A DNA stretch of 63,994 nucleotides, the filler included, from Rhizaria sp. SCN 62-66 (Eukaryota): assembly GCA_001724265.1 (NCBI GenBank). It is 3 parts of 3 records of this genome, joined end to end, with 100 filler letters (N's around TTAATTAATTAA, not from the genome) between each part and the next. Parts side by side here need not be neighbours in the genome. Positions count along the whole stretch, not along the records: positions 1 to 24,453 come from MEDY01000418.1; positions 24,554 to 49,023 come from MEDY01000419.1; 1 more part is not named here. The stretch is one strand, 5' to 3'. Both the position numbers and the translations under genes were made by a program. Below, piece by piece: positions 1,422 to 54,798 of the stretch. Each line of letters opens with the position of its first letter. Within the stretch, counting starts at the first letter, position 1. The notes beneath the pieces were generated by a model. It made no database searches. It was not told the DNA's origin and saw only the letters and a program-made list of their open reading frames with translations.

Positions 1422-2594
1422 ATGTCCGCACTTCCGTTCACCAAACAAGGTACGTACCGCTCTCCACATCACTGTAAGGAAATGTTTTTATGGTATGTCT
1501 TTTTGTTTCAGTACAGTCTAACTTGTGTACTCTTATTTTACCCCACCCTTTATATATCCTTGAAAACTGTAGACATCGAGGACCAGCTGCGGACGATGGG
1601 CTTCTCCGACATCCCGCCTGGTCTGCTCTAGTCCTTCATGAGCAAGCTCAGCACGCCCGATGCCAACAGCACCATTGTATCCGCAGTCAGCAGCGACGGT
1701 TTGGAGCCTGTGCCCGCTGCAGCTGTGGCGGACGGCAGTCATGCGACCACCGACAAAAACCAGCTCGAAGAATTGCACCCACAGCACCAACAGCAGCTGC
1801 AGCAGCAGCAGTCGGAGTATCAAGGCTTTGCTGACTATGTGCAGCAACAGCCGCCTTTTCCGCCTGCTCCTGCAACCCTTGTTGCTCCTGCCATTGCCCC
1901 GACGACTGCTCACAGCCACGGCCACGGCCACGGTCAGCTCAGCGACCTGTCTGCGTTCACGTACGTGCCCCGCGCCCCGCTCGTTGCGAGCGCGAGCACT
2001 GCGAGCACCGCGACTGCTGCCGCGGGTGCGCCTGCGGCCGCGGGCGCGGGGCTCGGCGCGAACAACAGCCTTTACTACCCTCTGCCTTCGGTCTCCTTCC
2101 CGCCCGCCGCCCCCCTCTTCTCCGGCAACGGAAGCAACTACAACGGCAACGACGGCGACGCCGACGGGAACGGTGGCGACGCAGCCCGCGGCGCAGCCCA
2201 CGGCGCTGACGTCAACGCGACGCTTGAAGAGCACTACCTAGGTCCCCAGCATGCTCACAGTCACTCTGACAAGGCAGAGGCTACGGACCTTGTAAGGGAA
2301 CACTTACCCGCCGCCGCCGGCTCCGGTCTGAGGAGCGATGTGACCGACAGCGCGTACAACGGGGAGTTTGCGGACCACAGCTACTTAGTCGGGGACCAGA
2401 GCTACTTAGCGCAGCAGGGCAACGCGCAGAGTCACAGTCACATTCACGGCCACCATGGTCAAACTGAGACTGAGGCTGAGTACAGGGCTGCGGGCGCTGA
2501 GGCTGGTGACAGCGATGCCAACGACAACGGCGGCGACGACTACGACTACGACTACTATGGCAACCAGCCGCAACAGGAGCAGCAGCAACAACTC

Positions 2595-2626
<32 letters not shown>

Positions 2627-4418: not shown

Positions 4419-4450
<32 letters not shown>

Positions 4451-4946
4451 GCGCTCGCGCTCCCGCTCCCGTCCAGTCACTGCAGCTGCAAGCAACAACA
4501 ACAACATCAGCAACAGCGCAAGTTTCGGTCGCGGTGACAGCAGCTATGCTGGCATCGACAACAGCAACGTCAGCCGCAGCCGCGCTCATCCCGCGCCGCG
4601 CCGGCCCGCTGCTGTGGCGGCGGCGACTGCAAGCATCACGAGCCACCCCCAGCATCGGAGGCCGCGGGACGCAGCCGCCGCGCTGGCGGCCGCCGAGGCT
4701 GCCGCAGCCGCTGCCGCAGCCGCCGCAGCGGTCGCGGCCGAGGCCGCCGCAGAGCTGAGGCGGCGCGCGGGCGTGCAGACGTTTATGCAGGAGCAGCGCG
4801 CGCGGCGGCGCGAGCGCGAGGGACTGCGCGCGCAGACGCGCGGCGGCGCGGGCGGCGGGCGCCGCAGCGACGTGCTGAGCCGGCACCAGCGCTACGAGGC
4901 TGCCTGGGATGAGAGCTTCCTGCGCCGCCGCGGCGGGCTCGAGTGA
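1422..4946 (+). CDS. HYLS1-like centriolar protein, ~1133 aa; exons 1422-1449 and 1573-4946; one in-frame TAG at 1629-1631
   Basis: The spliced N-terminus MSALPFTKQDIEDQLRTMGFSDIPPGLL*SFMSKL resembles the HYLS1 N-terminal motif, and the C-terminus SDVLSRHQRYEAAWDESFL resembles the HYLS1_C motif. The middle is Gln/Asp/Asn/Ala low-complexity sequence. Ends in TGA. Confidence 0.55.
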
Positions 4947-5288
4947 GCGTCGCCCAGGGGCAAGGGCCGAAACCAAGATAGCCTCAGTCGGACCGCTAAG
5001 TGATCGAGTTATCAACATCGATCACCCATGTCGTTGAACGAACCATTTTGATTACAATAGTATTGACAGAAATGTAATGATACAAAAGATATAAGACTAT
5101 TTTTAAAGTGAAATACAGATTGGTCAATTTGTATTGCGATTATTTTCTGTGTTGAAAAGCGTCTTTGTGCGGAGAAATGCATGGCTATTTAATTACTAAG
5201 TAGAGAGGAACAACGACGCAGCTTGCTGTTTTGTGTTGTACGGACCCGCCTTGCCTTGGCTGCCTTGCCCTGCTATCACGCTCAAATC

Positions 5289-5687
5289 TTAGTCGAGCTT
5301 GGAAGAAAGCTTGGGTGCAAGCGGCACGGGCGAGGGGCCGGACACGGTGGTGCCGTAAGCGCGTGCGCTGGCAGGGCCAGAGGGCGCAGACTGCTGCTAC
5401 TGTTGCTGTTGCTGGTCGAAAACCTCGAAGGGAGGAGGGACGAGCTTGAACGACTGGTTGGATAGGATGGACTTCGCAGTCATGAGGATCCAGATGGCCT
5501 GTAGTGTGTTGCGTATCATTTTTGGGGCGAAAAGCAGTGAAAAGTGGTGGCGATTGAGTGGGGAATGGTAATGGTGGGGAGAACAATTTGGATGATAACT
5601 TGAGAAACGTACGAGCGCGACGCCATGGACAATAAGGAGGTACTTGATAATAGTTCCCCAAGGCTCGGGAAGCAAAGGAGCGCCCAT
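5289..5687 (-). CDS. Small single-pass membrane protein, ~94 aa; exons 5687-5613 and 5498-5289; in-frame TAG at 5399-5397
   Basis: MGAPLLPEPWGTIIKYLLIVHGVAL|AIWILMTAK...FDQQQQQ*QQSAPSG...SKLD then TAA. GTACGT donor at 5612, CAG acceptor ending at 5499. Splicing gives one continuous hydrophobic helix. Confidence 0.7.
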
Positions 5688-6718
5688 TTGACTGCAAATA
5701 GTTTGAAGGGATTGCACAAGAATTGTGTGAGGCTGCAAGGAAATCCGGGCGCAAGGCGCGCGTAGAATAGCTAGAATTCTGACGTTATTTGAACACCTAA
5801 CGAGAAATTAAAAGAACAATCAAACAATATACTGACATATCTAACATATAATTCCGTGGATTCCAAATTGACGATAACATGTATGTTTTCCTGATTCATC
5901 AGGACAATGCTACAACCAACGGGTGCTCAAACAAGCTGACTGTGAGCAGGCAGCTCCAACAACGCTACTCGCTTAGTTTAACGTGCGTTAGTTAGCACAC
6001 CCAAGGTGGTTACAAAATCTACATCTTTTCAAGCCAAATTGTTGTGTTGGTGAGCTAAAATACCGTTTTTATTCCTTAAGGAGCCTGTTGCTTCGAGTAC
6101 AAGACTGAAAGTCTCCATGGATAGACCTCTGGGTCCTTATAGTGATTTTAATATGACTAAATTAAAAAAATATACTGTTTAATATATATTATATAACTTA
6201 TAAATATTTTATAAACATTAAATCAGCTATAAAAATATTTTTCCTTAATTTAATGTATAATAGAAATAAGAAGATGTAAATAATGTTAAAATGATTTTAT
6301 TTAACTGTTTACTTTTCTTTTGCTTATTTTAACTTTAAACTAATTTACATCCATGTTATCCCAAAGTCCCCTCATTTTTGACATAACTCCTATAAAACTA
6401 ATAACAAATATATTAATAACTAACAAAATATCATGGTAATTTAATTAATTGTTTTTTAACGATATCAAAAAATATATTTTTAAAGTATTGTTTTGATTTA
6501 AAATACTTGCTTTAAAAAATATTTAGTCTAATTTATATTGTTTTATTAAAAGTTTACACATGTTAATGCTTTGTAAAAACGCGATGTAATATCAATTATT
6601 TTAACCTCTAGTCGTTGCCGCTGGTCACGAATTGAAAGGACAGATCCGATACCATTTGTTTCAAACAAATTATACTGAAATGCTGTTAAATGTGCTAAAA
6701 AAGTGATTAACACTTCTT

Positions 6719-8508
6719 TTATGCACTGGGCTCCCACTCGTCATGGAACTTGCCAGGCATGTCTGTGCGCTCGAAGGTGTGAGCACCGAAGTAGTCACGT
6801 TGCGCCTGTGTAAGGTTGGCAGGAAGACGAGCACGGCGATACGTGTCAAAGTAGCTGAGCGACGCCAGCAGCGCAGGCGCAGAGATGCCAGCGTCAATGC
6901 TTAACTTGCAGATGTGGCGCAGGTGTGGCGCAGCGCCTGCGACAACGGTTGCGACCTCCGGCGCCAGCAGTAGGTTCTCAAGCCCCGGCTACTTGGCGTA
7001 TACGCGTTGCATAGTGGCAAGGAAGGCTGCACGGATAATGCAGCCGCCTGTCCAGATGCGCGCAATCTCGGCCAGCGGCAACTCCCAGCCGCGTAACGAG
7101 CTTTTGGTCCGCAGCAGCGCCATGCCCTGCGCGTAGCTCGCGATCTTACTCGCATACAGCGCCTGCTTCACCGCCTCCACCACTCCATACTTCTCTTCAT
7201 CATTTAACGTGACAGACTTACCAGTGCTGCCATGAGCAATAATGCTGCCGTAGAGCTTAGCGGCGGTCTGCCGCTCAGCGTGCATGGCGGCGAGCTGCCT
7301 GGCGGTGAGCGCAGCGGCGATGGTGGGCACTGGGACGCCCTCCAGAGCCGCGTCGCGCACCGTCCACGTGCCCGTGCCCTTCATCCCGGTCTTGTCCAGC
7401 ACTACGTCTAGAAGGTCGCCGCTCGAGCCTTGCTTGTCGGCGACGCGTAGAACGCGCGCAGTGATCTCGACAAGGTACGACTGCAGCTCCTCCCCGTCTT
7501 GGTTCCATGACTCGAACACGGCCGCGATCTCGCGGTTCGTCATCCCACACACCGTACGAAGCACGTCGTAAGCCTCAGCAATGAGCTGCATGTCGCCGTA
7601 CTCAATGCCGTTGTGTACCATCTTGACGTAGTTGCCTGCGCCGCCGGGGCCCAGGTACGTGACGCACGGAGCGCCCCCGACCTGGGCCGCGATCTTGCTC
7701 AAGATCGGCTCGACGCGGTCGAACGCAGCGCGCGGGCCACCGGGCATGAGCGACGGGCCGTGGCGCGCGCCCGTCTCGCCACCGGAGACGCCCAGACCTA
7801 GGTAATGCACGCCGTGCGGGGCGAGCTTAGCGGCGCGTGCCTCAGTCTGCTCCCACCACTCGTTGCCGCCGTCGATGAGCGTGTCGTCAGCAGATAACAG
7901 CGGAAGCAGTGTCGCGATAGTGCCGTCCACAGCCTGCAAAAGAGGTTGGAATATAAGTAATTTCAACAAACACACGTATTAGTTTGTTTAGTTCATCGCG
8001 AAACATCATGTTACAATTGTTAGAGGGTTTCACCCCATGCAGCGGTGCGACTTAAAGTAGGTTTATTTCAAGTCTGTAGAGATGATAACGTACGATACCA
8101 GCGTCAACCATGATGAGAATAACACGAGGAGTAGATAATGAAGCGACGAACGCCTTGGGATCATGGATCGCAATGACATTGCTCTTGAGCTCGGCCTACA
8201 ATCAAGATAAGAGAGAAGTCAACGAAGGAGCAGTGAGTCACAACAAAGACAGGTGATAGCGCATCAAGGAGTCGTGGGATGGGACTGTAACAAAAGTTAA
8301 ACGAACAATTTGGCGTATATAACTTAGTATTGTTAAAGATTTGTCGATTTCGCACCTTTTGAGCCTCCTCGACGGCCTGATCAAGGCGGGGTTGAGAGCG
8401 GTTGGAGATGGCTACACGGAATCCTTTGGAGGCGATGTTTAGGGCGAGGTTGCGACCCATAACGCCCATGCCAAAAACGCCGATATCAGCCTTAGTAGCA
8501 CAGCTCAT
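6719..8508 (-). CDS. gnd: 6-phosphogluconate dehydrogenase (decarboxylating), ~489 aa; exons 8508-8356, 8195-8094, 7933-6719; in-frame TAG at 6991-6989
   Basis: GMGVMGRNLALN, DGGNEW, VKMVHNGIEYGDMQ, WTGGCIIR and, beyond the TAG, the conserved LPANLTQAQRDYFGAHTFER. Ends in TAA at 6719. Confidence 0.97.
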
Positions 8509-10725
8509 TGTTGAGTTAATGTCAAGCAAAAGAACAACTTGAGTGTCTCAGGAAAGCGATCTCAAACGGAACCACTTCAAGTTGGGTCAGAGTCTGGCCT
8601 GCCGCAGCAACTACTGAACATGTTCAAGTGAGAAACGTATGAAACATTTGCAAATAAACTTAAGCTTACTATTGACAAGAATTACGAGTCTGTATAAATT
8701 GACGATTGATAGTGGAGTCAGCATATCCTGAGAAAGTATAATTACAAAGTTACACCTGGGTAAACAACATTATTGAAGTTAACATTCACCTTGGCCATAG
8801 TCTAAGTTGGATTAAAATTCTCGCTCACGGCTCTGCTGTGCTTTGGCACGAGTCCGCGACTCGCCCCCGCGCTATCAGTATAGGCAATACTGGGTGACTA
8901 TTTGGCATCACAGCCATTAAGAGCTACACCGTATGAAATGAGCGCAGTAACACACTTGAAGAAATAAGAAACACAGGAACATCAGCGACGACAACAGTCC
9001 AGCTCAGCCGACACCTCCCGCTTGCTTGTTCCCGCACTCGCTCGGACCCCGCTCTCCGTCGGCACTGCGGCCCACGCCGCGCCGCGCCGCCGCACCGGCC
9101 CGCACTGGCGCGGCCCACAGGCTCGGCGACAGAACGGGACGGCGCGGGCGGCGGTGACGGAGTGAGTGGCAGTGGCGTGTTTCAGTTGCCCGACAGATGT
9201 GTGCCGACGGAAGTACAGTTGCGCGGTTTGGTTAGCATCGCTGTGGCAGTGTCGCGCCCCCGTGTCGCGAAAGTGGCGGGGCGGGCGCGGCTACGTAGCA
9301 CAGCGAGAGACAGCTAACCAATCGCAACATTGGTTCCAGCACAGCATCAGACTTTCGCCAGCGAAAGCTTGAGTGAACCGAGAGCAGTGAAACAGCGCAG
9401 GCGAGTGGGTGCGAGGGGAAGAATGGGGCGACGCAGAGAGAGTGGGGAGCGGCAAGCGAGAAAGCGTGACGGAGAGCGACTGAGAGCAGTACCTGAGAAC
9501 AGTGACTGTGAGACATAGTGAGGTGACTGTGCGCAGAGCGGAGCGAATAATGACTGTGAGTCAGCAATGGCCAGCAAGTATCGATTAAAAAACAAACTAA
9601 AACAAAGCGCATTAAAAAAAAAGAGACACAAAAACACAGAACAAATGTACAAGCAAAAAAGGGGCAATTTTGTCAATAGCAAACAAAAAGGAAAGTGATT
9701 TGGACTATGACTGTGATTGTTGCTATGATTGATTGCTGTTTGTTGTTTGTTATTATCGTGATTATGGCGTGTGAGGACGGCAAAGGAGAGGCCGCTTCAG
9801 CACTTGAACGAACGAGCTCCAGTTTTGACTACTAGTACTCATACGAGGGTGAGCTGCGACTCCAGCTGTTGTCTTGATACGAGGACTAAATGTTCGAGAG
9901 TAATGGTATCAATAATAGCTGCTGCTTGCGGGATGTGAGGTAGTGATGATCGCTTGTAAGTTATGAGAGATATTTTGTTGATTTTGTTTTTGATTGTAAG
10001 AAAGTATGCAACACAAGAACAAAACAACAACACCGCGCAACACGATTGTCATAACTGTCGTAATCGATAACACTACAAAACACATCACAAACACGAATGT
10101 AAAATTGATTCAGAGAAAGAGAGAGTGAACATAGATCGTATATAAACAACACGAGACACTTAGGAGACTAAAGTAAACTAAGAAAATAAGACAAGAAAGA
10201 GAGACCCAAAAAGTATAAAACAAGAATACAAGTTATAAAAAGAAAGTGAAAGAAATGACCATATTGTTTGAAACGAAACGAAAAGGCAAAAAAAGAAAGC
10301 ACACAAGAATAAGAAAGATTTTCTTATTATCAGCAAGCACGAGTGGGCATGAGCGAGCGCAGTGCTGACGAGTGTAAGTGTGTAGAGTGCTTTGTTGCGG
10401 CAGTCAGCGAGCGTTCAGAACGGCGAGAGCAGAAGAAAACTGCGGCTCAAACCTCCGAGCACCCATGCCAACCAGCAACAGAAGACACTTACACTACACC
10501 TGCGTTCTATTCCGCTCAGCGCTGCATGCGTGCTGCGACTCATTCACGCCGCTTTCTCTGCGCTCCTGTGTGATTTGCTTGATTGCTTTGTTTCGATAAG
10601 CTGCGCGCAGCTTGACTTGATATATGGTCCAACAACACCCCTCACTTTGCTCCCGACGAAACCTGCACTGCACTGCGTCGCACTTTGTGTGTGCATGAGT
10701 GTGTCCACGCTGTGCTCAGGTCCGC

Positions 10726-13700
10726 TTACTCGAGGGCGCGGTAGGGGCTCTCACTGTCGCTGCCGTTGCCGCTGTGGCTGTGCGCGTACGTCGGGCCGAA
10801 GTGTACCGACCGGGACTTGCCAGTCGCAGCCGCGCCGTGGCCGTTGCCGCTGCTGTTGCCGTAGCCGTTGCCGGACACAAGCGGCACCGACAGGCCCTGG
10901 GGCTGCTGCTGGGGCGGGGGCTGGCTGTGGTCGTAGCGCGGCGGCGCGTACACGCTGTGCGAGCGGTTGTTGCCGTGGCCGTTGCCGTAGTGGACGTTGA
11001 CAGGGACCGGCACGGCGACGGCGGCGGCGGGGACGGGGGCGGCGACGGGCTTCTGGCTGTAGCCGGGGGGCGGGTGCGCGCCGTAGTACGCACTGTTGCC
11101 GTTGCCGTTGCCGTTGCCGTTGTTACCGCCGTTGTTGATGTTGAGGTTGGCGGGCACGCTGTTGTGGTGAGGGTGGAGCTGGAAGTACTGGTTGCCCTGG
11201 GGGCCGTGGGCCGCGCCGGGCGCCGGGTGGCTGCCGTGGTGGGGCCCGGGGGGGCCGTGGGGGCGGCCGTCCTCGCTGTCGGACCACGATGAGGCCGAGG
11301 CGTGCGAGGCGGCGCGTGCGCGCGATGACGCCGTGCCCGCCACGGGGCCCGGGACCATCGCCGCCACGGGGGCGGGGGAGGCGGAGGCAGGGCCGCCGGG
11401 GGCGGCGAAGGGCGCGGGGCTGCTGTTGCCGCGGTTGAGCTGCAGGTGGGCCGGGATTGACGGGTACATAACAGGGCCGGCAGCAGCCGCGGCGGCGGCG
11501 TTGTAGGGCTGGTACTGCTGGTACTGCTGGTACTCCTGTTGCTGCTGGTAGGGGTTGTACTGCTGCTGCTGCTGCTGCTGCTGGAACTGGACGGCGGCGG
11601 CGGCGGCGGCGCTCGAGGGCACGAGTACGTACACGGCGGGGGCGTCGGGGGCCGCGCCGGGCGGCGGCGGCACCTGCTGCAGCAAGTAGACGCCGCTGCC
11701 GTCGCCGCCGGGCAGCACCGTCGCGCGCACCGTCGCGCCGCCGGCAGCGCTCGCGACGCCCTCGACGGCGCCGCCGTTGTTGTTGGCGTTGGCGTTGGCG
11801 TTGGGGACGAAGATGTCGACGGTCATGCCGCCGAGGGCGCCGATGCCGACGCCAGCGCTGCCGACGCTGCCGGCACCGCGGCCGCCGAAGCTGACGCTGC
11901 CGTTGTGCGCGACGAGCACGCCGTTGCTCAGCGCCAGCGTCGCGGGGGCGGCGGCGGCGGCGGGGGCGGGCGGGGCCTTGTAGGGCCGGTAGATGCGGTA
12001 GACCGCCCAGGCCGAGAGCAGCGCAGTGGCCAGCGCGGCGACGGCGGCGACGACGGCGACCCACCAGCCGAGCGGCGCCCAGACGTGCGTCACGCGGCGC
12101 TCGGCCGCCACGCCGCCGGTCACGGCCGCCGCGCCGAACAGAGTCGACGGGACGGGGGCGGGGGACTGGGGCTGCGGGGGGTGGGTGAGAGCGACGAGCT
12201 TGCGCTGACTGGCAGAGCGCTGACTGGCGGGGCGGCCGTCGCCGCGGCCACGGCCACCGCTGCGGCCACGACCACCGCGGCTGCGCTTCTTGCTGCTGGC
12301 ACTGCCGCTGCCGCTGCTGGTGCCGCTGGAGGAGCCGGACGCGGAGCCCTCCTCGTCCCAGACGCGGAGCGGCGCGGCGGTGATGACGCGCTCGGTCGAG
12401 CCCAGCAGGCTGAAGCACGGCGACGCCGTCAGCGCGCGCCGCCACAGCTCCTCGACCACGGTCGCGCCCGCGTCGGCGTCGGCGTCGCGGGCGGAGGTCA
12501 GGGCGCCGTTGCCGCGGCGGGGGCCGTTGTGGGGGGCAGAGGCAGAGGCGGAGGCAGGGGAGGCGACAGACGACTCGGAGTCGGACTCGGGCTCAGGCTT
12601 GGGGGGTGCAGCGTCGGAGTCGGCGTCCTTGTTCTCATCGCCGTGACGGCGACCGCGACGGCCACCACGACCGTGACGGCGACCGCGGCCATGGCGGTGA
12701 CCGCGGCCGCGAAGGCCATGGCGGCGGCCACCGTGACGGGGGCCGAAGCCGAAGCCGCTGCGGCGGGGGCCGACGAAGCCGTGGCCGTGGCCGCCGCGCG
12801 CAGCGAGGGCGTCGGTGGCGGCGGGGGCGACGTCGACGCGGCGCAGGCCGTGGCCGAAGTGGTCCATGTCGCGGTGGCCGCCGTGGCGGGGGCCGACAGA
12901 GTCGCGACTGCGACTCAGGGAGCGGCCGCGGTGGCCGTGGGGGCGGTGGCCGTGGACGCGGTGGCCGTGGCCATGGCCGTGGGGGCCGTGACGGCGACCA
13001 TGGCCGTGGCCGTGACGGTGGGGGTCAGAGGCAGAGTCGGAGCCGATAGACAGCTCGCGAGGGCCGCGGGGGCCGCCGCGGGAGCCGTGGCCGTGGCCGT
13101 GACCGTGGCCGTGGGGGCCATGACGGCGCCCGCCGCGGCGGTGGCGGTGGCGGTGGCCGTGCTCCGGCTCAGCGTCAGCGCCAGCCTCAGCGACGGGGGC
13201 CTTGTCGGCAGCGTCGGCACTCGGGGTCGGGGTGGCGCTGTCAGCGGAAGCGCTGTCAGCGGAAGCCTGCTTGTCCTCAGTCTTAGCCGCAGTGTCGGGC
13301 TTGGGGTCAGTCTCAACCTCGTCGTCATCGTCGTCGTGGTGGCGGTGGTGGCGGCGGTGACCGTGACCGTGCCCATGAGGGCCGTGGTGGCCGTGGCGGT
13401 GACCGTGGTGGTGACCGAGAGCAGCAGGACCGTGACGGTGACCGTGGCCGTGGCCGTGGCCGTGGCCGTGACGGTGACGGTGACGGTGACCGTGGCGGCG
13501 GCGGTGGTGCTCAGTGACAGCGTCATCGTCATCATAATCCTCGTCGTCCTCGTCCTCGTCGTCGTCGTCAGCCTCAGCCTCGTCGTCCTTAAACTGAGTC
13601 ACGGTCACGGTCTCCGCGGACTCAGTGGCAGCAGCCTCAGTGGCCGTGGCGGGCGACTGGGGCGGCTTGGCGAAGGAGAAGATGACCGGCGCGGCGCCCG

Positions 13701-16700
13701 AGGCGGTGGCAGGAGCGCCGTTCGCAGCAGCACCGGCCTTGATGGCGCCGGTCTCGGTCGAGACGCGCGTGGGCACAGCGACTGCCGCAACCGGGGCAGC
13801 AGCAGACTCAGTCGACTCAGTAGCGGCGATGACGGGAGCGGCCGCAGACTCGGAGGCAGCAGTGGCGGCGGTGGCAGAGGCGGCGGTGGCGGGGGTCTGG
13901 GGCGCCTGCTCGCGCTGGCGCCGCTGGAGCGCGAGCTCGACGTTCTTCGAGTACTGGGCGCGCTTGGAGTGCTTGGAGCCATGGCGGCCACCGCGACGGC
14001 CACCACGGCGGCCATGGCGACGGCCGTGGCGGCGGCGGCGGGGCTCCTCGGCCTCAGTCGCCTCAGTCTTCGTCGCAGTCTCCGCAGCAGTGGAGTCAGC
14101 AACAACAGCGGCGGCGAACTCGGCGGACTCGGTGCTCACAGCCTTCGACTCGGGCTCAGTGTCGGGCTCAGCCTCGTCAGCATCGTCCTCGTCATCGTGG
14201 TGGTGGCGGTGGTGGCGGTGACGGCGACCGTGGTGACCGTGACCATGACGGTGGCCATGGTGGTGGCGGTGGCGGTGGCCCTCGTCCTCACCGTCAGCAG
14301 CACGCAGACCGTGACGGTGGCCGTGGCCGTGGCCGTGGCCGTGACGGTGGCCGTGGCGGCGGGCCGGAGCAGCGTCGGCGTCAGCGTCAGCGTCGGTCTC
14401 AGTCTTCGCGTCCTCGTCCTTGCGGATGGTTGCGACGCCGTCGACAGCGCTGGCAGCGGCGGCGCCAGTGGCGGGCACGGCGGAGACGAATTGCACCTTG
14501 GCCTCACCAGAATCAGCAGACGCAGGCTCAGGCTTATACTCCGGCTCGAAATCATCGGCCTCGGCCTCATCCTCTTCGTGGTGATGGCGGTGGTGGCGAG
14601 AAGGGCGACCGTGGGGTCCGCGACCGTGGCCGTGGCCGTGGCGGTGACCGTGAGGGCCGTGGCCGTGGCCGTGGGAGGGAGCCTCGTCGTCGTAGTCGTT
14701 GACATCGGAGGCCTCAACATCGCTGTCGCTGGCACTGGCGCGGCGCATGCCGTAGCCGTGGCGAGGGCCGCGGGGGCCGTGGACGTGGCCGTCGCGGTCG
14801 TCGCTGCCGCCCAGGGACAGCACATGCACGGCGTTGCTGCCGCCGGCGCCGGTGTCGGAGCTCTCGCTGGCGAACAGGTCGAGCAGACTGCTGCGGCTGC
14901 CGGCGAGCACGCTGCTGCTGCTGTCGACGGAGCCCATGGTGCAGACAGAGCTGAAGGGGTCGGCGCGGCGGTACGCCTTGCGGAGCGCGCGCGCGTGGCG
15001 ACTGGCCCAGTAGCCCGCGGCCGAGGTCGCCAACGCGAAGGCGGCGACGGAGAAGACGAGCAGCGCGAGCGACAGGCGTACGCGGCGCCGCGTCTCGAGC
15101 GGCGTTTCGGGCGCCAGAGGCCCGCCGGGGCCGTAGCTGTGCGCGTAGCACGCCACTGCCCCCGCGGAGGCCGAGGCGGGGACGACGGCGCGGCTGGCGT
15201 CGCCGCTGCTGTTGTTGTTGCGCGAGAGGGCGTTGATGTCAGACTCGTCGCCGTCGACACCACCGGCGGCGTCGTTGGCGTTGGGGTTGGCGTTGTTGAC
15301 GCTGCCGACCGCAGACACGCGCATGACGTTCACGTTGTTGTGCGCGGCGGCGTTGGCCGCAGCGGCGGCGGCGTCGGCGGCTGGGGCGGCCTTGGGCGCG
15401 CAGAGCAGCGCGGCGGCCAGCAGCGCGGCGGCGGCGAGCACGGTGGCGACGACGGCGAGCGCGAGCGTCGTGTCGTAGACCCGGGCGAGGCGGTTGCAGC
15501 GGAGGCCCAGCACGGAGCACTCGCCGGCGTCGTCTTCGTCGTTGGGCCCCCAGGGCCGCGAGCCCTCGCCCACGGGGCAGCTGAGGTCGATCGACGAGGC
15601 CGCGTAGGGCGCGGGGCGCGTGCAGTAGAGCGTCTTCCAGGAGCGCAGCGTGACGCGCGCGACGATGTGCGCCGAGGTGGGCTCGTGCGCGTCGGCCTCC
15701 TCCTCGGCGCGCACGCCGTCGCTTGACTCGTCCTCGCCGGACTGCGTCCAGCTCGACGCCAGCGGGGCCACGGGGGCCGCGGCGTCAGCGGTGACGTTGC
15801 CAGAGGGCTCGGAGGCGTCGGCGTTGGCGTTGCTGCCGGACTCGTAGTCGTCGTACTGGTGGTGGCGGCGGCCGTAGCCGTAGCCGTGGCGTGCGTAGCC
15901 GCGGCCGCGGCCGTGGCGGCGGCCGTGGCGGCGGCGGCGGTGCCCATGCTCACGCCCATGCTCACGATCCAACTCACTGGCGTCGTCGCTGGCACTGGCG
16001 CTGGCGCTGGCGTCGGCGTCGGTGGTGTTGACGGCGTCCGTCTCGGCGTCGTCGTGCTCAGGGTGAGGACGGCGGCCGTGGCGGCGGCCGTGGCGGCGGC
16101 CACCGTGATGCGGGTGGCCGGGGGGGCCGCGGCGCTTGTGGTCAGACTCGGACTCGGGCTCAGGCATGCCGTCGCTGTCAGAGGCAGCAGCAGAGGCATC
16201 CTTGGTCTCAGTCTCGGTGTTCACAGGGGTCTCAGGCTTATCGGACTCGTCCTCGCCCTTGCGAGGCGGGGGGCCGCGGCGGTCACCGCGGCCGGGGGGA
16301 CCACGGCCGGGGCCGCCACGGCGGGGAGGAGGGCCGCGGCGGTCGCCGGCCTCAGGCGACTCCTCAGTCGCAGCATTCTCGGACTGGGCCTCAGACTCGC
16401 CACGGCCACGGCCATGGCCACGGCTACGGCCGGGGGGGCCGCGGCCGTGCTCAGCGTCAACGTTGTCACCGTTGGCCTCAGTCTTGGAGTCAGACGACTC
16501 GTCCTCAGAGTCACGGCGGGGGCCACGAGCGCCGCCACGGCGGCCACGAGGGCCATGAGAGCCGCGGGGGCCGTATGAGCCGTGGGGGCCGCCGCGACGA
16601 CTGCCACCGGACTCGGCGGCGCCGGAGAAGCGGGAGGAAAAGCGCGAGGTGAGGGAAAACACCGAGGCCGTGAGCGAGGACGACAGCGACGAGAGGAACG

Positions 16701-17238: not shown

Positions 17239-17912
17239 GGTGGCTGAGAAGCGGGGAGAGCTGGACGCGGTTTCGCTGTGCGAGTTGCTGTGTCGCGGGG
17301 TGACGAGCTGGGGTCTGAGCTTTGTTGCTCGGGTAGCTGTGGACGTCCGGTTGTCCGGGAGACGGAGAAGAAAAGAAAAACGACCGCGGGTCTGGAGACG
17401 GCGGCTGCAGAGAGAAGCAGCGAGAAAAGGGAACGCGTAAGGCACACAGGGGGAAAGAAAGCAGAGGAGCAAAGGCCGAGTGAGACGAAGCATGGAGACT
17501 CGAAATGCGGAGCATAGGTGCGTGAAATGGCAATGTGGGCTTATGTCGAAGATAATATTGAGTGTGGTAATGCTGCAACACGAAATGAATAACGGAGGTA
17601 GTCTGATTAAGGCCTTGTTTGTCCGGCTTAGAGGGAGCAGGGAAGGGAATAAATGCCAAGGGGCTGAGCAAGCTCCTGCGAAAAGTCCATATAGACGCGC
17701 TGAAGTCTTTATGCACGAAACTGTTACTCTACTAGAAAACGCAAAAGAACAGTTTATCTAAGAGCAATAACGCATCACCCGGAATTACGGTCACATAGCC
17801 ACGGTTTCAGTCATTCTAGTCCAACCTCAAGTTCCTTTCAAGCGACGACCACAAAACATCCGACCAGCGACGCTAGCAAGCTAGCCTGGTGGTTCTCAAA
17901 AAAGCACCGATA

Positions 17913-17944
17913 GATCGATCGATCGATCGATCGATCGATCGATC
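17913..17944. repeat. (GATC)8 palindromic microsatellite between divergent genes
   Basis: Read directly; followed by degenerate GACC GACC units. Confidence 0.95.
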
Positions 17945-18220: not shown

Positions 18221-20616
18221 ATGCGTGTGTCTCCCTTCGCCTCGGCGCTGAGCCGCCGCGCTGCCGCCGCAGCCAAGCCCCTTTTGTCGGCCCCCCGCAC
18301 CGCTCTCCCCGTCACCACGCCCGTGCGCCTGCTGTCCTCCGCCCCCGCCGACGCCTTCGTGCCCGGCTCCGGCGCCCCCGCCTGCGCCGCGCCTGCGCCC
18401 GACGCGCAGGAGGGCGGCGCGCTGCTGCGATCGCGCGGCACTCTTCTCAATGGCCGCCCCATGTACCTCGATGCCGCCGCCACCACCCCCGTCGACCCCC
18501 GGTACGTCCATCTCTCACCAATCAATCCTTTACGCTAAATATTGTCTTAATCTCCCACTGTTCGAGATATTACTTAATTTAACCATGCTTGATGGCATAA
18601 TGGCTTTTGTATTTCTGTTTCATTCCAACAAATGGATGTATACCCGATTTCATACCTGATATTGTACCTCTATCGTACTTTCGCTCCCGTTTGCATTTTC
18701 CTCATTATATCTCCGATTTCTCCCTATTTTCGCATCACTTTGCATCACCTCGCCTTATTTTTATCTTTTCTTGACATGGATATGTTGTTTTTGCTATGAT
18801 TTCCTTCCCGCGCAGCGTGCTGGACGCGATGCTGCCGCTGATGACGCAGCAGTTCGGCAACCCGCACTCGACTACGCACTCGTTCGGCTGGGAGGCCGAT
18901 GACGCCGTTGAGCACGCGCGCGCGCAGGTACGCCGCACTCGCGACTAAGTGTTTCACTTGCTCCACGTCTTATGCGCTCTCTCTCAGCTCTGTAGTCGCC
19001 CTATATTTTCCTTCGGTCTCACTCAATATCTCTCACTCATCATCACTCTGCTGTGTTTGTATGCTTTCTTTGTTCTGTCCTCTAGGTCGCCTCGCTGATC
19101 AACGCGAGCCCGGCCGAGATTGTCTTCACATCGGGCGCGACCGAGAGCAACAACGCGGTGATCAAGGGCGCCATGCGCTTCCTCTCCCCGAAAAAGCGCC
19201 ACGTCATCACGGTGCAGACGGAGCACAAGTGCGTGCTCGACTCGTGCCGCGCGCTGCAGCAGGAGGGCTTCGAGGTCACCTACCTGCCCGTCAACTCCGT
19301 CGGGCTGATCGACCTGGCACAGCTCGAGGCCGCGATCCGTCCCGACACCGGGCTGGTCTCGGTCATGGCCGTCAACAACGAGATCGGCACCATCCAGCCG
19401 CTCAAGGCCATCGGTGAGATCTGCGCAAAGAAGGGCGTCAAGTTCCACACTGACGCCGCGCAGGTACGAACAATTTGCGATGCATTGCAATATTTCTCTA
19501 TTTTGCGATACTGTGTCACGTTTTCGCTTGATATATCACGACTGTCACTCACACCAAAGATTTTTGTTTTTTTGGTTTTTCTATCCTCTTGTTCTTCTCC
19601 TCTAGGCTGTCGGCAAGATTCCCATCGATGTGGCCGCGCTGGGCTGCGACGCGCTGTCTCTGTCGTCGCACAAGCTCTACGGGCCCAAGGGCGTCGGCGC
19701 CATGTACGTGCGCCGCCGCCCGCGTCTGCGCCTCGAGCCCATCATCTCCGGCGGCGGCCAGGTACGCCCACGTTAAATCACAATATCTTGTGGATATACG
19801 CTCTGAGTGACTATTTAGCATTAGATTTATGTTCACATGCATTTTTATCCATTAATTAAGTAAATTTCACATCTAACCACTCTTATCTTTCCCTATCTCT
19901 TTCCCTATCTGACCACAGGAACGCGGCATGCGCAGCGGCACGCTCGCTGCGCCGCTGATCGCGGGCCTGGGCGCGGCGGCCGAGATCGCGCAGCGCGACA
20001 TGGCCTTCGACGCCGCGCACATCTCGCGCCTCTCGCACCGCCTCGTGGCGGGCCTTCGCAGCCGTCTCCAGCACATCGTCATGAATGGGCCCGAGCTCGA
20101 ATCCGGCGACAGGTCCGTCCAACAGTCTATATTCGCAAAACGAGAACAAAGATGTCACATTCATGAGAGAGAGGTGATCAAATTTTTTTAATGTATAATG
20201 TCTACTTTTGTATCGTTATTTTATACTTTGTTTTATAGTAACTTTATATCTCACTTTTATTATATATTCTCTATATGTCTTGATGCCACAGGTACCTGGG
20301 CAACGTCAACATGTCGTTCGCGTACGTCGAGGGCGAGTCCCTGCTGATGGGGCTGAAGCAGGTCGCTGTGTCCTCCGGCTCCGCGTGCACGTCGGCCTCG
20401 CTGGAGCCGTCGTACGTGCTGCGCGCGCTGGGCGTCGAGGACGACATGGCGCACACGTCGATCCGCTTCGGCATCGGCCGCTTCACGACGGAGCGCGAGG
20501 TGGACCTGGCCGTCGCTATGACGGCCGCGCAGGTCGAGCGTCTCCGCGAGCTCTCGCCGCTCTGGGAGATGGTCCAGGAGGGCATCGACCCCGCCACCAT
20601 CCAGTGGGCCCACTAA
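18221..20616 (+). CDS. NFS1: Mitochondrial cysteine desulfurase, ~481 aa; exons 18221-18501, 18816-18927, 19086-19463, 19606-19761, 19919-20112, 20292-20616
   Basis: [56 protein letters not shown]. Arg/Ser/Ala-rich presequence. All five introns are GT-AG and in phase. Ends in TAA. Confidence 0.97.
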
Positions 20617-21280
20617 GTGCACCGCTAAGTGCGCCGCTGAGTAAGTTTCCCAGCTGCTATGCTATGGGGGACACTTGAGTGAGTGCATCTCCAACTCGGG
20701 AGAAAACGAGAAAACTCAAACGATTTTTTTTATTTTGATGTTTTTTAGTGATCATATGAGAGCTTGCTTTTACTTTTTAGCTTTCACGTTTGTTGTTTGT
20801 TTGATTACAACAACACAACACAGGCTCTCTCTAATTATATGAGCTGTCGATGCGACAATAACGCAATGTGATGCACAGTTGTGTGTACTAGTAGTACGGC
20901 TGTACGCGTGTGCTGGTGATGATGACGACGATGATGACTGATGCGAGTGTTTGAGCTCGTTTCGTTCGTTCGTTTGTGTGTAAGTGTAATTGTGTGAACC
21001 TTTCTTTTCTACGTGAAAAGTAAGATGTGAATCTGAAAGCTTTGTTACTGTCAAGCTGTGATAATAGTAATACTTAGTTTTAAAATAATACACATAATAA
21101 TCGTATACATTCGCAATACCGTAGCTTTGTGTGACTTGTTTTGAGTTAAAAGTCCATGTGTGTATTGTGAGATTTAGTCAGAGTGTTAAAGTCATGCATG
21201 TTTTGCAATCGATACATTGCAATCAAATAAAGGCTTGAGATGTGCCCACAGCCATTAAGTTGCTATTTTTGAGTGATGGC

Positions 21281-24200: not shown

Positions 24201-24453
24201 GCCGTCACAGGGGTGAAGGCGGCCATAGCGACGGCGACGGCGGGGTCGCCCGCGCCCGCACTTTTAGCCTGGTTGCCCGACCTGTTGCCCTTCTTGGGAA
24301 CCGCGAGACTGTGGCCGCCGTAGCCGCCAGTCGCCTTGCCGGTGTTTCTCGCGGCCAGCCGCCACGCCGGCAGCGCAGCCGCCAGCGCGGCCCGCACCGC
24401 CCCCGCCGCGGCCTCTGCGCAGCGCAGCACGGCCGTCGCCGCCGCCGCCGCTA
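21281..24453 (-). CDS. COG7-like Golgi tethering subunit, C-terminal part; 5' end lost at the contig break
   Basis: LPLFSAPS...GEALVAV and WLSSAA...LSPSAAVQLAADARYIRAVLAALHL resemble COG7 C-terminal motifs as recalled. The frame is open to the gap and ends in TAA. Confidence 0.5.
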
Positions 24454-24553
24454 NNNNNNNNNNNNNNNNNNNNNNNNNNNNNNNNNNNNNNNNNNNNTTA
24501 ATTAATTAANNNNNNNNNNNNNNNNNNNNNNNNNNNNNNNNNNNNNNNNNNNN
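24454..24553. other. Artificial contig linker (Ns flanking TTAATTAATTAA)
   Basis: 100-nt N block with a six-frame-stop palindrome at 24498-24509; identical to the second gap. Confidence 0.97.
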
Positions 24554-24988
24554 TGGACTATTTCGCTCGTAGTGAAATAGAAAAGTGCGCACCAAGGCGC
24601 GAAAATCGCGGAAAACACGTTTTTTCATAAACCTCTACATCGGGGGTATGTGAATGTTACATCTCATGTAAACTAATAAGTTGTTTTCGTTGTTGTTTTT
24701 GTTCATCAACTGCGTGACTCGAAAATAATGTTAAGCTTCTTCCGTATCACATTATATTAACCTTCACCACTGCCCAAAACAAAAAGTGAAACGAAGCGAG
24801 TAAAAAACATATAAAGATGACACCAACCCTTGTTATCAAAACCACTCACCAGACATGCTACACGGCTCGGTTTCTTGTGCACTACAGAAGACCGTGTCGC
24901 ATTACCCAACTCACCACCTTGCACTGGACTGTGCTGCTGCGCTGCACCTCATGTCACTCCGCCACACGTTGCTGCAATGTGGTAGAAT

Positions 24989-27900
24989 TCAGTTGAAAAG
25001 GTGACGCTTTACTCCAATGTACCTATCGTTGAATTCCTGCGTCTTATATACAGCGTACTCCTGCGACGTGTCCGCCTTGTTGGCGTAAAAGTTCGCCAGC
25101 GCGCGGCGCGCAGACTCAGGCGCCTCATCAAGAGCGGCAAAAACGCGGCGGGTACGACGAGCCGCGGTCAAACGTACTTTTTCCTCATCTGTCAGCGATA
25201 AATTCATGCTGCAGCCGTGGTCTTTAGTGCACTTCACAACGTGTTTGTGCATGTCGGCGCGGGTTGGTGCGGTGGCGTCAAAGCAGACACCGCAAAAGTG
25301 GTGCTAAGGAAGACTAGTATTGTCGCATTGCACTGCGGCGCAAGCTTCCCAATCGATCACCATGCTGCCACAGCCTGGCATCGGGCAGTGGTCACGTAAG
25401 GCGTCCTGCAGCTTCTCAACAACGTCCCAGTGTTCTTGCTCAATAGGGTCGCGCGTCGTAAAATCTGGGTCGCCAAAACGGTGTGTCTTGTTGCATGACG
25501 TGCACTTGAAGTACTTCGAGTTCTGAGTGTTCGCAGAGACCTCGTGAATCTCAAAGCAGCGCGTCGAAGGGCACTTGACAAACTCGTGCTCCGGGTCCGA
25601 ATCGATGTAGGTCACGAGCGCAGCGCCAACAAGGCCGTCGACGTCCTCGCGGCTCAGAGCGCCCATCGGCAGATCACAGAGCAGCAGCGATTGATGACAA
25701 ACCGAACACTTGATCTTCCCACCTTTGATATCGGGAAGAGCGTTCTGCAAGCACTCCGTGCAAAGCAAATGGTCACACAAGAAGGGTGCAAGACCAAGGT
25801 TAAGGTGCGACACAGGCTCCCCGCAGGTACAGCACTGGTTTTTGGCACCATTTTTGCTCAGCTCGTTGCGGTGCGTTTCATTGGTTTCCTTGAACAATTG
25901 TCCACGGCTCCTAAACGTTGCTTCAAACTCCTCAACTTGCCTCTTCGAACCCGAAACGTAGAACGACTTCTTTGTGCTTGTGGCTTCAAAGTCGACAATA
26001 GTTGCCTTGCTAGCCGAGCGAACGGACTCGATTGCCGTCGCGGGCGTGCTGGCAACAACCTCAACAAGCTTATCGACCACCTCCATGGAAACTAGCTCGG
26101 CCACGAGCAACTTGACGTTGGCGAGCATCTTTGTGGATGCATCCATGCTGCTGTAGACAAACATTGCGCAAGACGTGCGACAGTAACGACCCCATGCGGG
26201 TCCAGTGCCCTTACGTTGGCTGATTAAGGTGGCAATCTTCTTGGTCGCGGTGGGCCCAGCCATACGCCGGACAATCTCCAAGCAGCGAGTCGTAGTCGTG
26301 TCAATTTTGTGCTCAGCACACGTGATGACGCTCTTGAGTGTGTCAATGCGCTTAACGTCAGCCAGGCCAACAGTTACAACGACGTGGGTTTTGCTCAACT
26401 CATCGCGCCCGATAGAGCTTTTGTTGTCAGGCGAGTCCAGTTTTGAGCTAATGCACTGCTGCAACTCATCGCCAATTGCGTTACCTGCGTCAAGCGGCAT
26501 GGTGATACTGAGCACAAATATCTTACCCTGACACTCGAGGCTGTCGATGTTACCAAGCTCAGCCTTTGTGGGCACAACGGGGCACGACGCCATAGTAACA
26601 TCGGCGTAGTAGCGCTTTGGCTTGGACTTATAGAGGAAGCCTGAGGACACAACCTTCATGTTGCGCTCAGTTACAAACGCGGGCAGCTTGCGCTCACCGT
26701 TGGCGGACCACGTAAAGCGCACGCACTGCTCCACGCGCCGGCGCACTGTTGGGTCGGGGCTGACGCGATAATCGCCCTCCGCTGCCGAAATCAACTCAGC
26801 AGTGCGCGCGAAGGCGTAGGTCCCGTTATTCTTGAGGTATTTGTGTACCTCGGCTGCGTCTGTGCTGCTCGCGCATACAAGCGTCACGCGCAGATTCTGG
26901 GAGTCTTCCTGTGGCGCTGAAACAACTGTGACAACCTTCTTACTCACGCCACGCAACGCGCGCTGACGGATACGGAACTCAGGATAGCACTCGTTTAAGG
27001 GTACATCAGTGAGACGCATCATCGCAGTCGCGCCGCTCGGTAGCAGGTTTGTGGCTGTAAGCCCAGCGCCACAAATGACCGCAGTACCGTCACCAATGTC
27101 AAACTGACGCTGCTCACACAGCATCCTCTCTCGGGTCTCTTGCATATGATCCTTGAGTAGATCGAGGGCTTTCTCAAGGTTAGTTGCGTTGTGAGCGCGC
27201 ACGGTGACGTAACCAGATCCCAGCTGGAGCGTGCAAATGTTGCCGTAGCGATTCTCGAACGCCTGAATGTGCCAGACACCGGGGAATGCGGCGTTAAGCT
27301 GACCAACCGTGTAGCTGTTGATCTCCTGCTCGGCCATCTGCGGCATGCTGTTCATGTACTCGCTGCACTTCTTGTACATGCTACTACTCTCACGGGTAAT
27401 CCAATCCAGCTCGACGGCGTACGGCGGCGTTGTGATGATGAACTGATTTTGCACGGCGTGTGACGTGAGGAACACGGACCAGTCACGAGCCTTCATGATG
27501 TTTTCAGCAGTCTGGGGACGCCAGTTAGTAAGAATCCTACCGCTTGCAACATGCACGTACTGGGCTTGGAACATCGCTGTACTCTTGTTCGCGGCGGCCT
27601 CTTGAACTGCCTTGGGCACAAGCTTAAGCAAAGCGTGCGTAAAGTAACCAGACGCAACGCATTCGCACACCATTTTAGACGAAATGTCGCTGACCTGAGG
27701 CTGTACGTTTAGCGCGGACGGCTCGGCAACGCTGGCGAAGAAATTCTTAAAGTCACTGCTAGCGCGCTCAATCCACTTTTCTGCCAGCGTAAAGTACTCG
27801 CGCGGAAGCTTGCTCTCGTTCATAATCTTATGCTTGTCCATAGACCCGGACACCCATTCGATAATAAACTTCACGCAGACAGACAATGCAACAGGCTTCT

Positions 27901-30247
27901 TAGTGCAAACGCTGGTTGCCGCATTGTTTGCACTCTCCGCATCTCCCGCGCTCCTGCGCTCGTTTTCTGCACCATCCGCCGACGCCACGCCAAGTCCGTT
28001 GTAGCCCGGGCTTGACACGTGCACAAGTTGCAGTGCCGCAGCCACGTACAGACCGATCGAGTTCCTGTGCCGCTTCATGGCCTCCCAGACAACACGCGTA
28101 AGCTCGATTGAGCAGCCCACGATGACACTTAAGCGACCGTAGTCGGTAATGGTGTAGCTCTTGCCGTCGTAGTGAACAGCTTTGAGATCACACAAGTCAT
28201 CGAGTGCCTGCTTGACGCTGTTTTCCGGGGGACGCTCAAACCACTCGAAGTTTAATGGGTTCTTGCGCAATGAGATAAGTGCCATCAGCGTCGTCTGCAG
28301 AGGCTGACTGAGCACCACGGGGCGGTTCGACGCTGGAAAGCGCTCAAAGTCATCCTTGCCGTACAGGCGCACACAGATGCCGGCGCGCGTGCGGCCCGCG
28401 CGTCCGGCGCGCTGGGTGGCAGAGGCCTTCGAAATGGACTGCAGCGACACGTGTGCAACGTGCGTCTCGGGGTTGTACTCGGTCGCGGAGCGTAGTCCAG
28501 GGTCAATGACAACAGCAACGCCGTCAATCGTCAGTGATGTCTCAGCCATTGCTGTCGCCAAGTACACGACAACGGTCGCACGTTTTTCATCGGCTTCGAT
28601 GTGCCGCTGTGCCAGCTGTTCCTGCTTGGGCGTCAAAGTTCCACTCTGAAACAACGGCAGGTTGGATGCGGCAGCCAGCTCGCTTTCGCTGTCGGTCAGA
28701 GTCATAGTCTCGTAGCATACATCGACAGCAACGCCGCGCGTGTGCGCCGGGCGGCGCAACGCACGGTTTGCCGCCTCGACGTCGGCGTCCGTCGGAAGAA
28801 AAACGAGGACGTTACCTTGCGCGCGCCCGCAGAGGTCACCACGGAAGTACTCATCGACGGCGCGCACAGCTGCAGCCACAACAGTGCTAGCGCTGAGACG
28901 CTCGACAGGGGGACGATACACAATCTTGAGCCAACTGTGCGCGCTCTGAATATCGACGTGTTGGACTTTAAGTCCAGAAGCCTCGAAATAACGTTTGAAT
29001 GCGTTGGCGTCAATCGTGCCCGACATCACGACGAGCTTGACACCAGCGCGCGCGGCGTCGGCCGCAAGCTCCAGCAGCACGTCACTTTCGATACTGCGCG
29101 TGTGCGCCTCGTCGACAACAATGCAGCCAACGGTGGCCTTGGGAACAAGCTCAGACACCTTGTCTCCACGGCCCTTGTCGATAAGCGCGCGGTAAGCGCT
29201 AATGACGTCGCTCTCCGACGCATATGCAATGCGCAAGGTGTCCGGGGCGTTCGCGCAAGCACTGCCCAGGCAGTATACCGCATCTTTGAAGTGCTTTGGA
29301 ACGTCCTTAAGAGCGTCAGAGACTACCTCGGCGTTATTCCTGACCTGAGTATTGGCCTTGAGTAGGCCGCGAACCTTGAAGCAGTCGCCGGCGAAGACAT
29401 CGCGTACGTATTTGGCAAGGCTAAATGCCGCAATGCGATGCGGCTGCGAGCACAGCACAATCTTGCCGTCCATGATGCTCATGTCAGCGATGTATTGGGG
29501 CACGAGAGTACTCTTACCACAGCCGGGCGCACCGGTGACGAGGACGACGTCGTTCGAAGCGACTGCTTTCTCGATATCGTTGCGAGCCCACCGTGCCGCG
29601 TGCTTACCGTTCAGCAGAGCTGCCTCGCGCCGCGCATAGCTGAAGAACTCAGTGCACTGACTTGCGCTAGTAGCAACGCGCTGTAGCGCAGCGAGCTTCG
29701 AGTTGATGCGTGTGCGTACGACGTTGAGGTAGAGCGTGAGCTTGGCCTCCTCTGCAGCCTTGTCCTCGTCAGACAGATTACTATGCGTCGCGCGAATGAG
29801 GTCGGCCACAGCTTCAACTTCCATGCCACAGTGGCTTGCAAGGCTGAGCAAGGTGGACAGACTCAGAGAGCTGCTTTGTGCTGGAGTGGAGGGTGTAGTG
29901 GAGGAGGACCTGGTACTGCTGCTCGCAGCCTTCTGGGGAGTCGACTTAAGGGAGGAGATCACATTGGGCTAGGGCCGGTTCTTAGCCGCCTCATAATCCT
30001 TATCGTCGCGATGCGTGTAAGGGCAGATGTTGCATGCGTTTTCGCCAATCTTGCACAACGCACGAAGTCCCTTGAAACTGCACAAAGCTGTTGCGCCAAC
30101 ATGACGATCTGTGCACCCAGGCTTCTTGCACAACGCGGTACGTACGTAGTAGCAGAGAGGAGTGGCGTGATTTCGGCAGTTGTGCCGAAAGCACCCATAA
30201 CCATGCTTTTGGTTATGTGGGTCCCTCTCGAAGACGCACTCTTGCAT
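24989..30247 (-). CDS. CCCH zinc finger + DEAH-box helicase + RBR (RING1-IBR-RING2) ubiquitin ligase, ~1752 aa, intronless CDS; in-frame TAGs at 29971-29969 and 25306-25304
   Basis: ORFs 29969-30247, 25304-29962 and 24989-25252 share one frame and are separated only by TAG. Motifs GAPGCGKST, VVDEAH, MSGT, AETSLTIDG, QRAGRAGR and C-terminal Cys/His clusters. Ends in TGA. Confidence 0.88.

Positions 30248-54766: not shown

Positions 54767-54798
<32 letters not shown>

Follow-up and report, generated by a model that had tools for sequence, protein, structure and literature searches.

Reassignment of UAG alone among the stop codons has been described in the fornicate Iotanema spirale, in which the codon means glutamine (Gln) and a tRNA-Gln with a CUA anticodon is predicted, and in the rhizarian exLh, in which it means leucine (Leu) (Panek et al., 2017; PMC5304391). 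The same type of change is reported for three phyllopharyngean ciliate lineages, once to Leu and twice to Gln (McGowan et al., 2024; PMC11687900). In yeast, near-cognate tRNA-Gln is reported to read through premature stop codons in Gln-rich contexts (Leslie et al., 2026, preprint; PMC13192750). Here we describe a 63,994-base stretch of DNA (the window; three contigs, with N runs at 24454-24553 and 49024-49123), in which five TAG codons lie in frame within long open frames, three of them inside two conserved genes. One encodes 6-phosphogluconate dehydrogenase (6PGDH), the other a DEAH-like helicase in fusion with zinc fingers of RING/IBR-like type. The preliminary description of this DNA had proposed that UAG is a sense codon, probably for Gln, and that UAA and UGA remain stops. 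Based on the results presented below, we concluded that UAG is very probably read as an amino acid in this organism, and that an organism-wide code in which UAG means Gln, with UAA and UGA as stops, is the likely explanation.

In-frame UAG codons in conserved genes

The strongest of the five sites lies in the 6PGDH gene (Table 1). Once its two introns are removed, each of exactly 160 nt and bounded by GT..AG, the translation is continuous (the intron ends were checked) and a 490-residue protein is encoded. The enzyme is of the plant/cyanobacterial type, and its closest relatives are 60-64% identical. An unbroken match to the Pfam family PF00393 runs over the TAG and takes in the whole profile (positions 1-290 of 290; E = 1.1e-112), and the best PDB chain aligned with query residues 14-416 (E = 4.9e-117) in an alignment that includes the conserved tail beyond the TAG, to the C-terminus. 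All 119 homologues examined continue beyond the TAG position. Termination at this codon would remove 90 residues, including the conserved LPANLxQAQRDxFGAHT tail, and the public gene call P0006 ends exactly here.

The 6PGDH TAG is also present in sequence data from outside the window. Both splice joints of the gene are visible in contigs of run X5: an RNA-derived, spliced contig (record 20) joins 6728-7932 to 8093-8195 with the 160-nt GT..AG intron gone, shows no differences from the window and keeps the TAG, and the second joint lacks the other 160-nt intron. In run X4, which comes from another study, the neighbouring spacer carries four substitutions and three indels, and the TAG at 6989-6991 is kept (record 14). 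An independent public metagenome contig, L001 (3,125 nt), is 100% identical to window positions 6249-9373; it was the locus examined among the 80 listed by a metagenome scan with the relative P0007, in which the sole close match was the window's own locus and from which the contig of P0007 itself was absent. The RNA evidence covers the 6PGDH site only, among the five TAGs. Contigs from runs X7 and X12 do not span this codon, and an X7 contig that stops at 6988, where its depth is about 4, was not used. A contig from X12, a polyA RNA library, runs at 7900-8082 from exon 3 into the unspliced intron at 7934-8093, and represents either unspliced pre-mRNA or DNA carry-over.

Two further TAGs lie in the single-exon helicase/RING-IBR-like gene, one near each end of the encoded protein. 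The first, at 29971-29969, is bridged by a relative (P0129, 57% identity) that aligns to helicase residues 9-1046 as one uninterrupted open reading frame (ORF). At the TAG itself, NRP-TAG-P of the window corresponds to SKPHA in this relative, and the Cys/His-rich N-terminus that precedes the TAG is conserved; a Pfam search of the helicase N-terminus matched no family. The second TAG, at 25306-25304, was covered by searching 1.84 billion representatives exhaustively with phmmer; the last 183 residues served as the query, with the TAG at position 79. The best stretch spanned the TAG in 26 of the 31 hits, or in 25 without the repeat protein P0268. The five hits that did not span it comprise the window's own truncated call (P0128), two short pieces (P0250 and P0252), P0265 and P0272. 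The Pfam IBR match to this C-terminal domain was weak and below the cut-off (E = 5.1e-4), and a PDB search with the same domain gave weak RING matches only, at E-values of at least 0.085.

A relative of the helicase gene, 54-65% identical, is recorded as three ORF pieces (P0129, P0248 and P0250) that break near window residues 1047 and ~1600. These breaks may be in-frame stops of the relative's own or introns, and they were not counted as evidence.

At three sites in two conserved genes, evidence from outside the window thus places UAG in frame within conserved coding sequence whose homology continues downstream, and we concluded that the in-frame TAGs are a real feature. All five TAGs of the preliminary description proved to be in frame with long open frames at the positions it gave. 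Its further claim, that coding-like sequence follows each of them, stands by outside evidence at these three sites and by the open frame alone at 1629 and 5399.

Table 1. In-frame TAG codons, the genes that carry them and homology-anchored terminators, by position in the window
Feature	Position	Strand	Details
TAG in putative exon 2 of low-complexity gene, weak	1629-1631	+	ATG 1422; intron 1450-1572; stop TGA 4944-4946
TAG in 76-codon ORF, weak	5397-5399	-	ORF 5519-5292, stop TAA; run CAG CAA CAG CAA CAG TAG CAG CAG
6PGDH gene	6719-8511	-	Exons 8511-8356, 8195-8094, 7933-6722; stop TAA 6721-6719; introns 8355-8196, 8093-7934
In-frame TAG of 6PGDH, strongest site	6989-6991	-	Codon 401 of 490
TAA terminator of NFS1	20614-20616	+	Residues 2-109 of 110 in the last exon align to human NFS1 residues 282-389 of 391
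Helicase/RING-IBR-like gene	24989-30247	-	Single exon; ATG 30247; stop TGA 24991-24989; Helicase_C match
In-frame TAG of helicase/RING-IBR-like gene	25304-25306	-	Codon 1648 of the protein, within Cys/His zinc-binding-like domain
In-frame TAG of helicase/RING-IBR-like gene	29969-29971	-	Codon 93 of the protein; 92 codons past ATG 30247
TAA terminator of eIF6	33284-33286	-	Pfam eIF-6 covers 68-196 of 197
TAA terminator of HECT ligase	35131-35133	-	Pfam HECT covers 66-305 of 306

Terminators and codon usage

Among the 13 gene ends that can be read in the window, nine are TAA, four are TGA and none is TAG. Four of these ends (6PGDH, NFS1, eIF6 and HECT) are anchored by homology, and all four are TAA; the p23 gene ends in TAA according to the ORF list, and the TGA terminators sit at ORF-defined genes only. 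The confident coding sequence (14,613 codons, with the 127-codon segment 19090-19470 left out) contains three TAG codons and neither TAA nor TGA. The same set contains 423 CAG and 89 CAA codons, so that UAG makes up ~0.6% of the Gln codons. Neither TAA, TGA nor a frameshift breaks any of the homology-checked genes, namely 6PGDH with its three exons, the NFS1 exons, eIF6 and HECT, and to this extent the earlier statement that the genes run uninterrupted holds; in genes defined as ORFs only, the absence of TAA and TGA holds by construction. Within the window, the proposal that UAG is sense and that UAA and UGA are stops is therefore upheld by three in-frame TAGs in two conserved genes and by the absence of TAG from all 13 ends. 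UAG is, in addition, stable across samples and strains.

The low share of UAG among Gln codons suggests that the reassignment is young or weakly used. UAG would be decoded by a tRNA with a CUA anticodon derived from tRNA-Gln(CUG) by one change, or by tRNA-Gln(CUG) itself, and eRF1 would recognise UAG poorly.

Several observations weigh against an organism-wide code of this kind, and those that bear on the Gln assignment are given with it below. The evidence base is limited to 64 kb; within it, ARAGORN found no tRNA gene, and hence no tRNA(CUA), and eRF1 is not encoded there. The absence of TAG from 13 gene ends is modest evidence, with P of about 0.02-0.06 if TAG normally ends 20-25% of genes. 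UAG usage is very low, at ~0.02% of the confident codons, and ORFs of 4,548 and 2,344 codons are without any TAG; the genes with an in-frame UAG number two for certain and four at most, of about 13. At two of the five sites, 1629 and 5399, the continuity of the frame is without further support. The bases that follow the five TAGs are T, C, C, C and C, all of them pyrimidines. Finally, in the ciliates Hartmannula sinica and Trochilia petrani, UAG accounts for 18.5-31.8% of Gln codons and occurs in 78-84% of genes (McGowan et al., 2024; PMC11687900), far above the share found here.

Context of the UAG codons and stop-codon readthrough

The base at position +4, directly after the codon, was compared between the in-frame TAGs and the terminators. 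A purine follows 10 of the 11 tabulated terminators and C follows none of them. Given the composition of first codon bases, the probability of at least four C residues after the five TAGs is 0.017. Measured against the composition after CAG (C = 0.48), the probability is ~0.16, which is not significant if the TAGs arose from CAG codons. The test is post hoc and the sample small. A pyrimidine at +4 is a weak-termination context in eukaryotes. The observed pattern may fit residual competition by eRF1, as in an early or incomplete reassignment, or else site-specific near-cognate readthrough.

The first of these possibilities can be put as an early or intermediate capture of a stop codon in a non-ciliate, mitochondriate, GC-rich eukaryote, in which UAG has been lost as a terminator and is returning as a rare Gln codon tolerated only before a +4 pyrimidine. 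Continued competition between eRF1 and the decoding tRNA would confine UAG to the places of weakest termination. We consider this more specific scenario a tentative possibility.

Site-specific readthrough is the main rival explanation for the in-frame TAGs. Under it, UAG is still a stop codon genome-wide, and the UAGs observed here are leaky and read through to a useful extent by a near-cognate tRNA, typically tRNA-Gln(CUG), either at particular sites or as an ambiguous intermediate. The bias at +4 is what such leakiness would lead one to see, and so is the great rarity of TAG in coding sequence; the TAG at 5399 is, moreover, flanked by Gln codons, a QXQ context of the kind reported to promote Gln insertion at premature stops in yeast (Leslie et al., 2026; PMC13192750). 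Against it, the 6PGDH TAG stands in the middle of the catalytic domain rather than before a C-terminal extension, so that most of the product would be lost if readthrough were at a low level. TAG ends none of the 13 genes, and the +4 bias loses its significance when CAG is taken as the reference. The sequence downstream of the TAGs also speaks against a readthrough signal: no motif beyond the +4 pyrimidine is shared among the five sites, and no stable RNA structure was found in the 100 nt after each TAG (folding z-scores against shuffled sequences of +1.53, -0.14, +0.88, +0.44 and +1.69). On balance, we regard site-specific readthrough as rather doubtful.

Two special forms of recoding were considered alongside. 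Classical programmed readthrough, in which a stop at the end of a complete protein is followed by an optional extension, was rejected, given that the TAGs interrupt domains, namely the C-terminal domain of 6PGD and the Cys/His domain. Recoding of the pyrrolysine or selenocysteine type was set aside: pyrrolysine is not known in eukaryotes, and selenocysteine uses UGA.

Amino acid encoded by UAG

The preference for Gln at UAG positions was judged from few sites. In the Cys/His domain, a MAFFT alignment (A2) places Q in all three homologues that have a residue at the TAG column; the window reads LP-TAG-HHFCGVC and the homologues LPQHYFCG, IQQHLFCG and LPQCGFCA. In pairwise phmmer alignments of the same site, 21 homologues carry Q in five cases, K and R in four each, G, S and M in two each, and N and E in one each. 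The TAG at 5399 falls within a run of CAG and CAA codons, that is, in a polyQ context. The 6PGDH column is polar in character and lacks Leu. When mean BLOSUM62 scores were summed over the three supported sites for residues one anticodon change away, Q ranked first with 1.48, followed by E (0.69), K (0.27), S (0.12), Y (-1.83), L (-7.94) and W (-8.49).

Other observations count against the Gln part of the proposed code. The 6PGDH column is dominated by N, with N in 107 of the 119 homologues, D in 8, S in 2 and A and E in 1 each, and Q in none. The relative P0129 carries H at the TAG at 29971-29969. In the crude three-site BLOSUM62 sum, H and N stand above Q, each through a single site, and a GAG variant occurs at 1629 in run X4.

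A sense codon with a meaning other than Gln was therefore weighed, with Glu or Lys as plausible residues and Leu as the precedent to exclude. The TAG/GAG polymorphism in X4, the near match of K and R to Q among the 21 residues at the domain site and the proximity of E and K to Q in the summed scores would all be accommodated by such a meaning. The Q found in the LPQ motif in three of three homologues and the polyQ run around the TAG at 5399 argue against it, and we judge a non-Gln meaning unlikely. Leu is disfavoured by the aligned residues, which are polar (N, D, Q, K, R and H): it occurs at the TAG position in 0 of 119 6PGDH homologues and in 0 of 21 homologues of the domain, where the sole hydrophobic residue is M (2 of 21), and its summed score is strongly negative. 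Among the usual candidates Gln thus appears to be the best reading, narrowly over Glu and Lys, and the assignment is moderately supported by these sequence comparisons. The preliminary description, which had called Gln probable, chose the residue that still fits best, and its support is moderate only.

Nonsense mutations, sequencing error and RNA editing

If the TAGs were nonsense mutations in decaying or dispensable copies, whether pseudogenes or strain-specific null alleles, they would be the likeliest nonsense product in coding sequence rich in CAG and GAG, and just two well-supported genes are affected. The affected frames are nevertheless intact and conserved on both sides of the TAGs, with no frameshift, TAA or TGA. 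An RNA-derived contig shows the 6PGDH mRNA in spliced form, and the TAG persists in a diverged strain from another study. The GC content at third codon positions (GC3) also remains high, at 0.76 in the last exon of 6PGDH and 0.66 in the helicase gene. An origin of the TAGs by gene decay is accordingly very improbable. An assembly or sequencing error, or C-to-U or U-to-C RNA editing that restores CAG, which had been named beforehand as a refutation of the sense-codon proposal, has a negligible chance of being the explanation, since contigs of X4 and X5, two independent runs, carry the same TAG, as does L001, and the spliced cDNA contig reads TAG rather than CAG. Both error and editing are excluded at the 6PGDH site, where spliced mRNA and a diverged strain retain the codon.

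Weak sites and rejected candidates

The gene at 1629 has a putative intron of 123 nt (GTACGT..TAG), and an ATG at 1638 offers an alternative, TAG-free start. In run X4 one contig reads TAG at 1629 and another reads GAG, which represents a polymorphism between co-occurring strains or a paralogue. The TAG at 5397-5399 is kept in X4 (record 13). No Pfam family support was found for either site, and a Pfam query with the small ORF returned one low-complexity match only (E = 0.012). Many organisms contribute to the RNA depth at the CAG repeats (1641-1881 and 5256-5496), which was not used.

Three other TAGs were rejected as evidence. The TAG at 36673-36671 (minus strand) is not a sense codon but the acceptor site of a HECT intron of the form GTACGT...TAG; HECT profile positions 2-66 start beyond it, and the in-frame stretch at that place is AT-rich. 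The TAGs at 43234-43232 and 17760-17758 both lie upstream of likely start codons.

Genome context

The window is eukaryotic nuclear DNA that is intron-bearing and GC-rich, with GC-rich exons. GC3 of the coding segments ranges from 0.66 to 0.97, and the AT-rich parts of the window are introns and spacers. The introns are of the GT..AG type and 123 and 160 nt long, and GTACGT recurs at their 5' ends. Such 5' splice sites were noted at 1450-1455 (plus strand), at 8093-8088 and 8355-8350 (minus strand), in the HECT intron that ends at 36671 (minus strand) and in the intron after ~44696 (plus strand), with GTGCGA once among them.

The genes recognised in the window are those for 6PGDH, a mitochondrial-type NFS1, eIF6, a p23/CS-domain protein, a HECT ligase and the helicase fused to RING/IBR-like zinc fingers. 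The mitochondrial-type NFS1, the GT-AG introns and the high GC3 confirm the features that had been raised earlier against a ciliate or fornicate. The window also codes for several very long low-complexity proteins. Intronless ORFs at 49309-62952 (4,548 codons) and 10726-17757 (2,344 codons), both on the minus strand, consist mostly of low-complexity runs of Ser, Ala, His-Gly and Gln. Two gene starts on the plus strand, at 63818-63994 and 48745-49023, are cut by contig ends. The former resembles by eye the N-terminus of a ribosomal protein (eL6-like), and Pfam gave no match to it at E <= 0.001. No Rfam family was found in the 64-kb window.

Several studies dated 2015-2025 yielded bioreactor and wastewater metagenomes whose contigs include the same DNA. 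An eIF6 search of the ESM Atlas did not resolve the taxonomy, and no description of a wastewater eukaryote with this code was found in the literature, supplements aside.

Significance

Few departures from the standard nuclear code are known, fewer still in which UAG and UAA differ in meaning, and each of them tests how a supposedly frozen code changes. If confirmed genome-wide, the code proposed here would be a UAG case in a GC-rich, intron-bearing, aerobic genome. Should the early-capture scenario be true, it would constitute an independent UAG-only origin outside ciliates, fornicates and Rhizaria, and the codon capture and ambiguous intermediate models could be tested directly in nature. The described cases, in the papers considered here, use UAG heavily; here its usage is extremely low and apparently restricted by context, as expected of an early reassignment. 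This low usage and the context bias set the case apart from a routine addition to the known code variants. In practical terms, proteins of this organism are cut short at UAG by standard gene callers, as in P0006 for 6PGDH and P0128 for the helicase, and public metagenome resources therefore hold wrong annotations of its genes. Each of the public calls P0006, P0128 and P0249 is either truncated at a TAG or split there.

Comparison with known systems

Codes in which UAR means Gln (NCBI table 6) are used by ciliates, some green algae and diplomonads. They share with the present case a stop codon reassigned to Gln. In the window, however, UAA is plainly a terminator, with nine of the 13 ends, including the four anchored by homology. 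Multi-gene contigs of more than 24 kb that combine long introns with high GC do not resemble ciliate macronuclear DNA. Fornicates are anaerobic metamonads.

The UAG-only codes are closer. The preliminary description had taken such codes to be rarer than they are, given the three phyllopharyngean lineages now on record (McGowan et al., 2024; PMC11687900). In the rhizarian exLh (Panek et al., 2017; PMC5304391) and in three phyllopharyngean metagenome-assembled genomes from TARA (McGowan et al., 2024; PMC11687900), UAG means Leu and UAA is kept as a stop, whereas Leu is disfavoured here. The yeast readthrough system resembles the present case in the insertion of Gln at UAG, in the Q-stop-Q context that is seen here at 5399 and in its weak termination contexts (Leslie et al., 2026; PMC13192750). 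It differs in that readthrough is partial and the code standard, whereas here UAG lies within essential domains and ends no gene.

The best matches are found among the codes in which UAG alone means Gln. Iotanema spirale has UAG as its only reassigned stop codon, UAA as the dominant terminator and Gln as the likely meaning, as in the window, and it differs in being an endobiotic fornicate; the organism studied here has a mitochondrial-type NFS1, GC-rich exons and introns of 123-160 nt, and its UAG is far rarer (comparison with Panek et al., 2017; PMC5304391). In Hartmannula sinica, as in Trochilia petrani, only UAG has changed its meaning to Gln, UAA is preferred as the stop and UGA still terminates (McGowan et al., 2024; PMC11687900), and the terminators of the window show the same order of preference. 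Based on these comparisons, the code described here is probably of the same type as those of Iotanema, Hartmannula and Trochilia (UAG for Gln with UAA and UGA as stops; NCBI table 15 type), in a new lineage.

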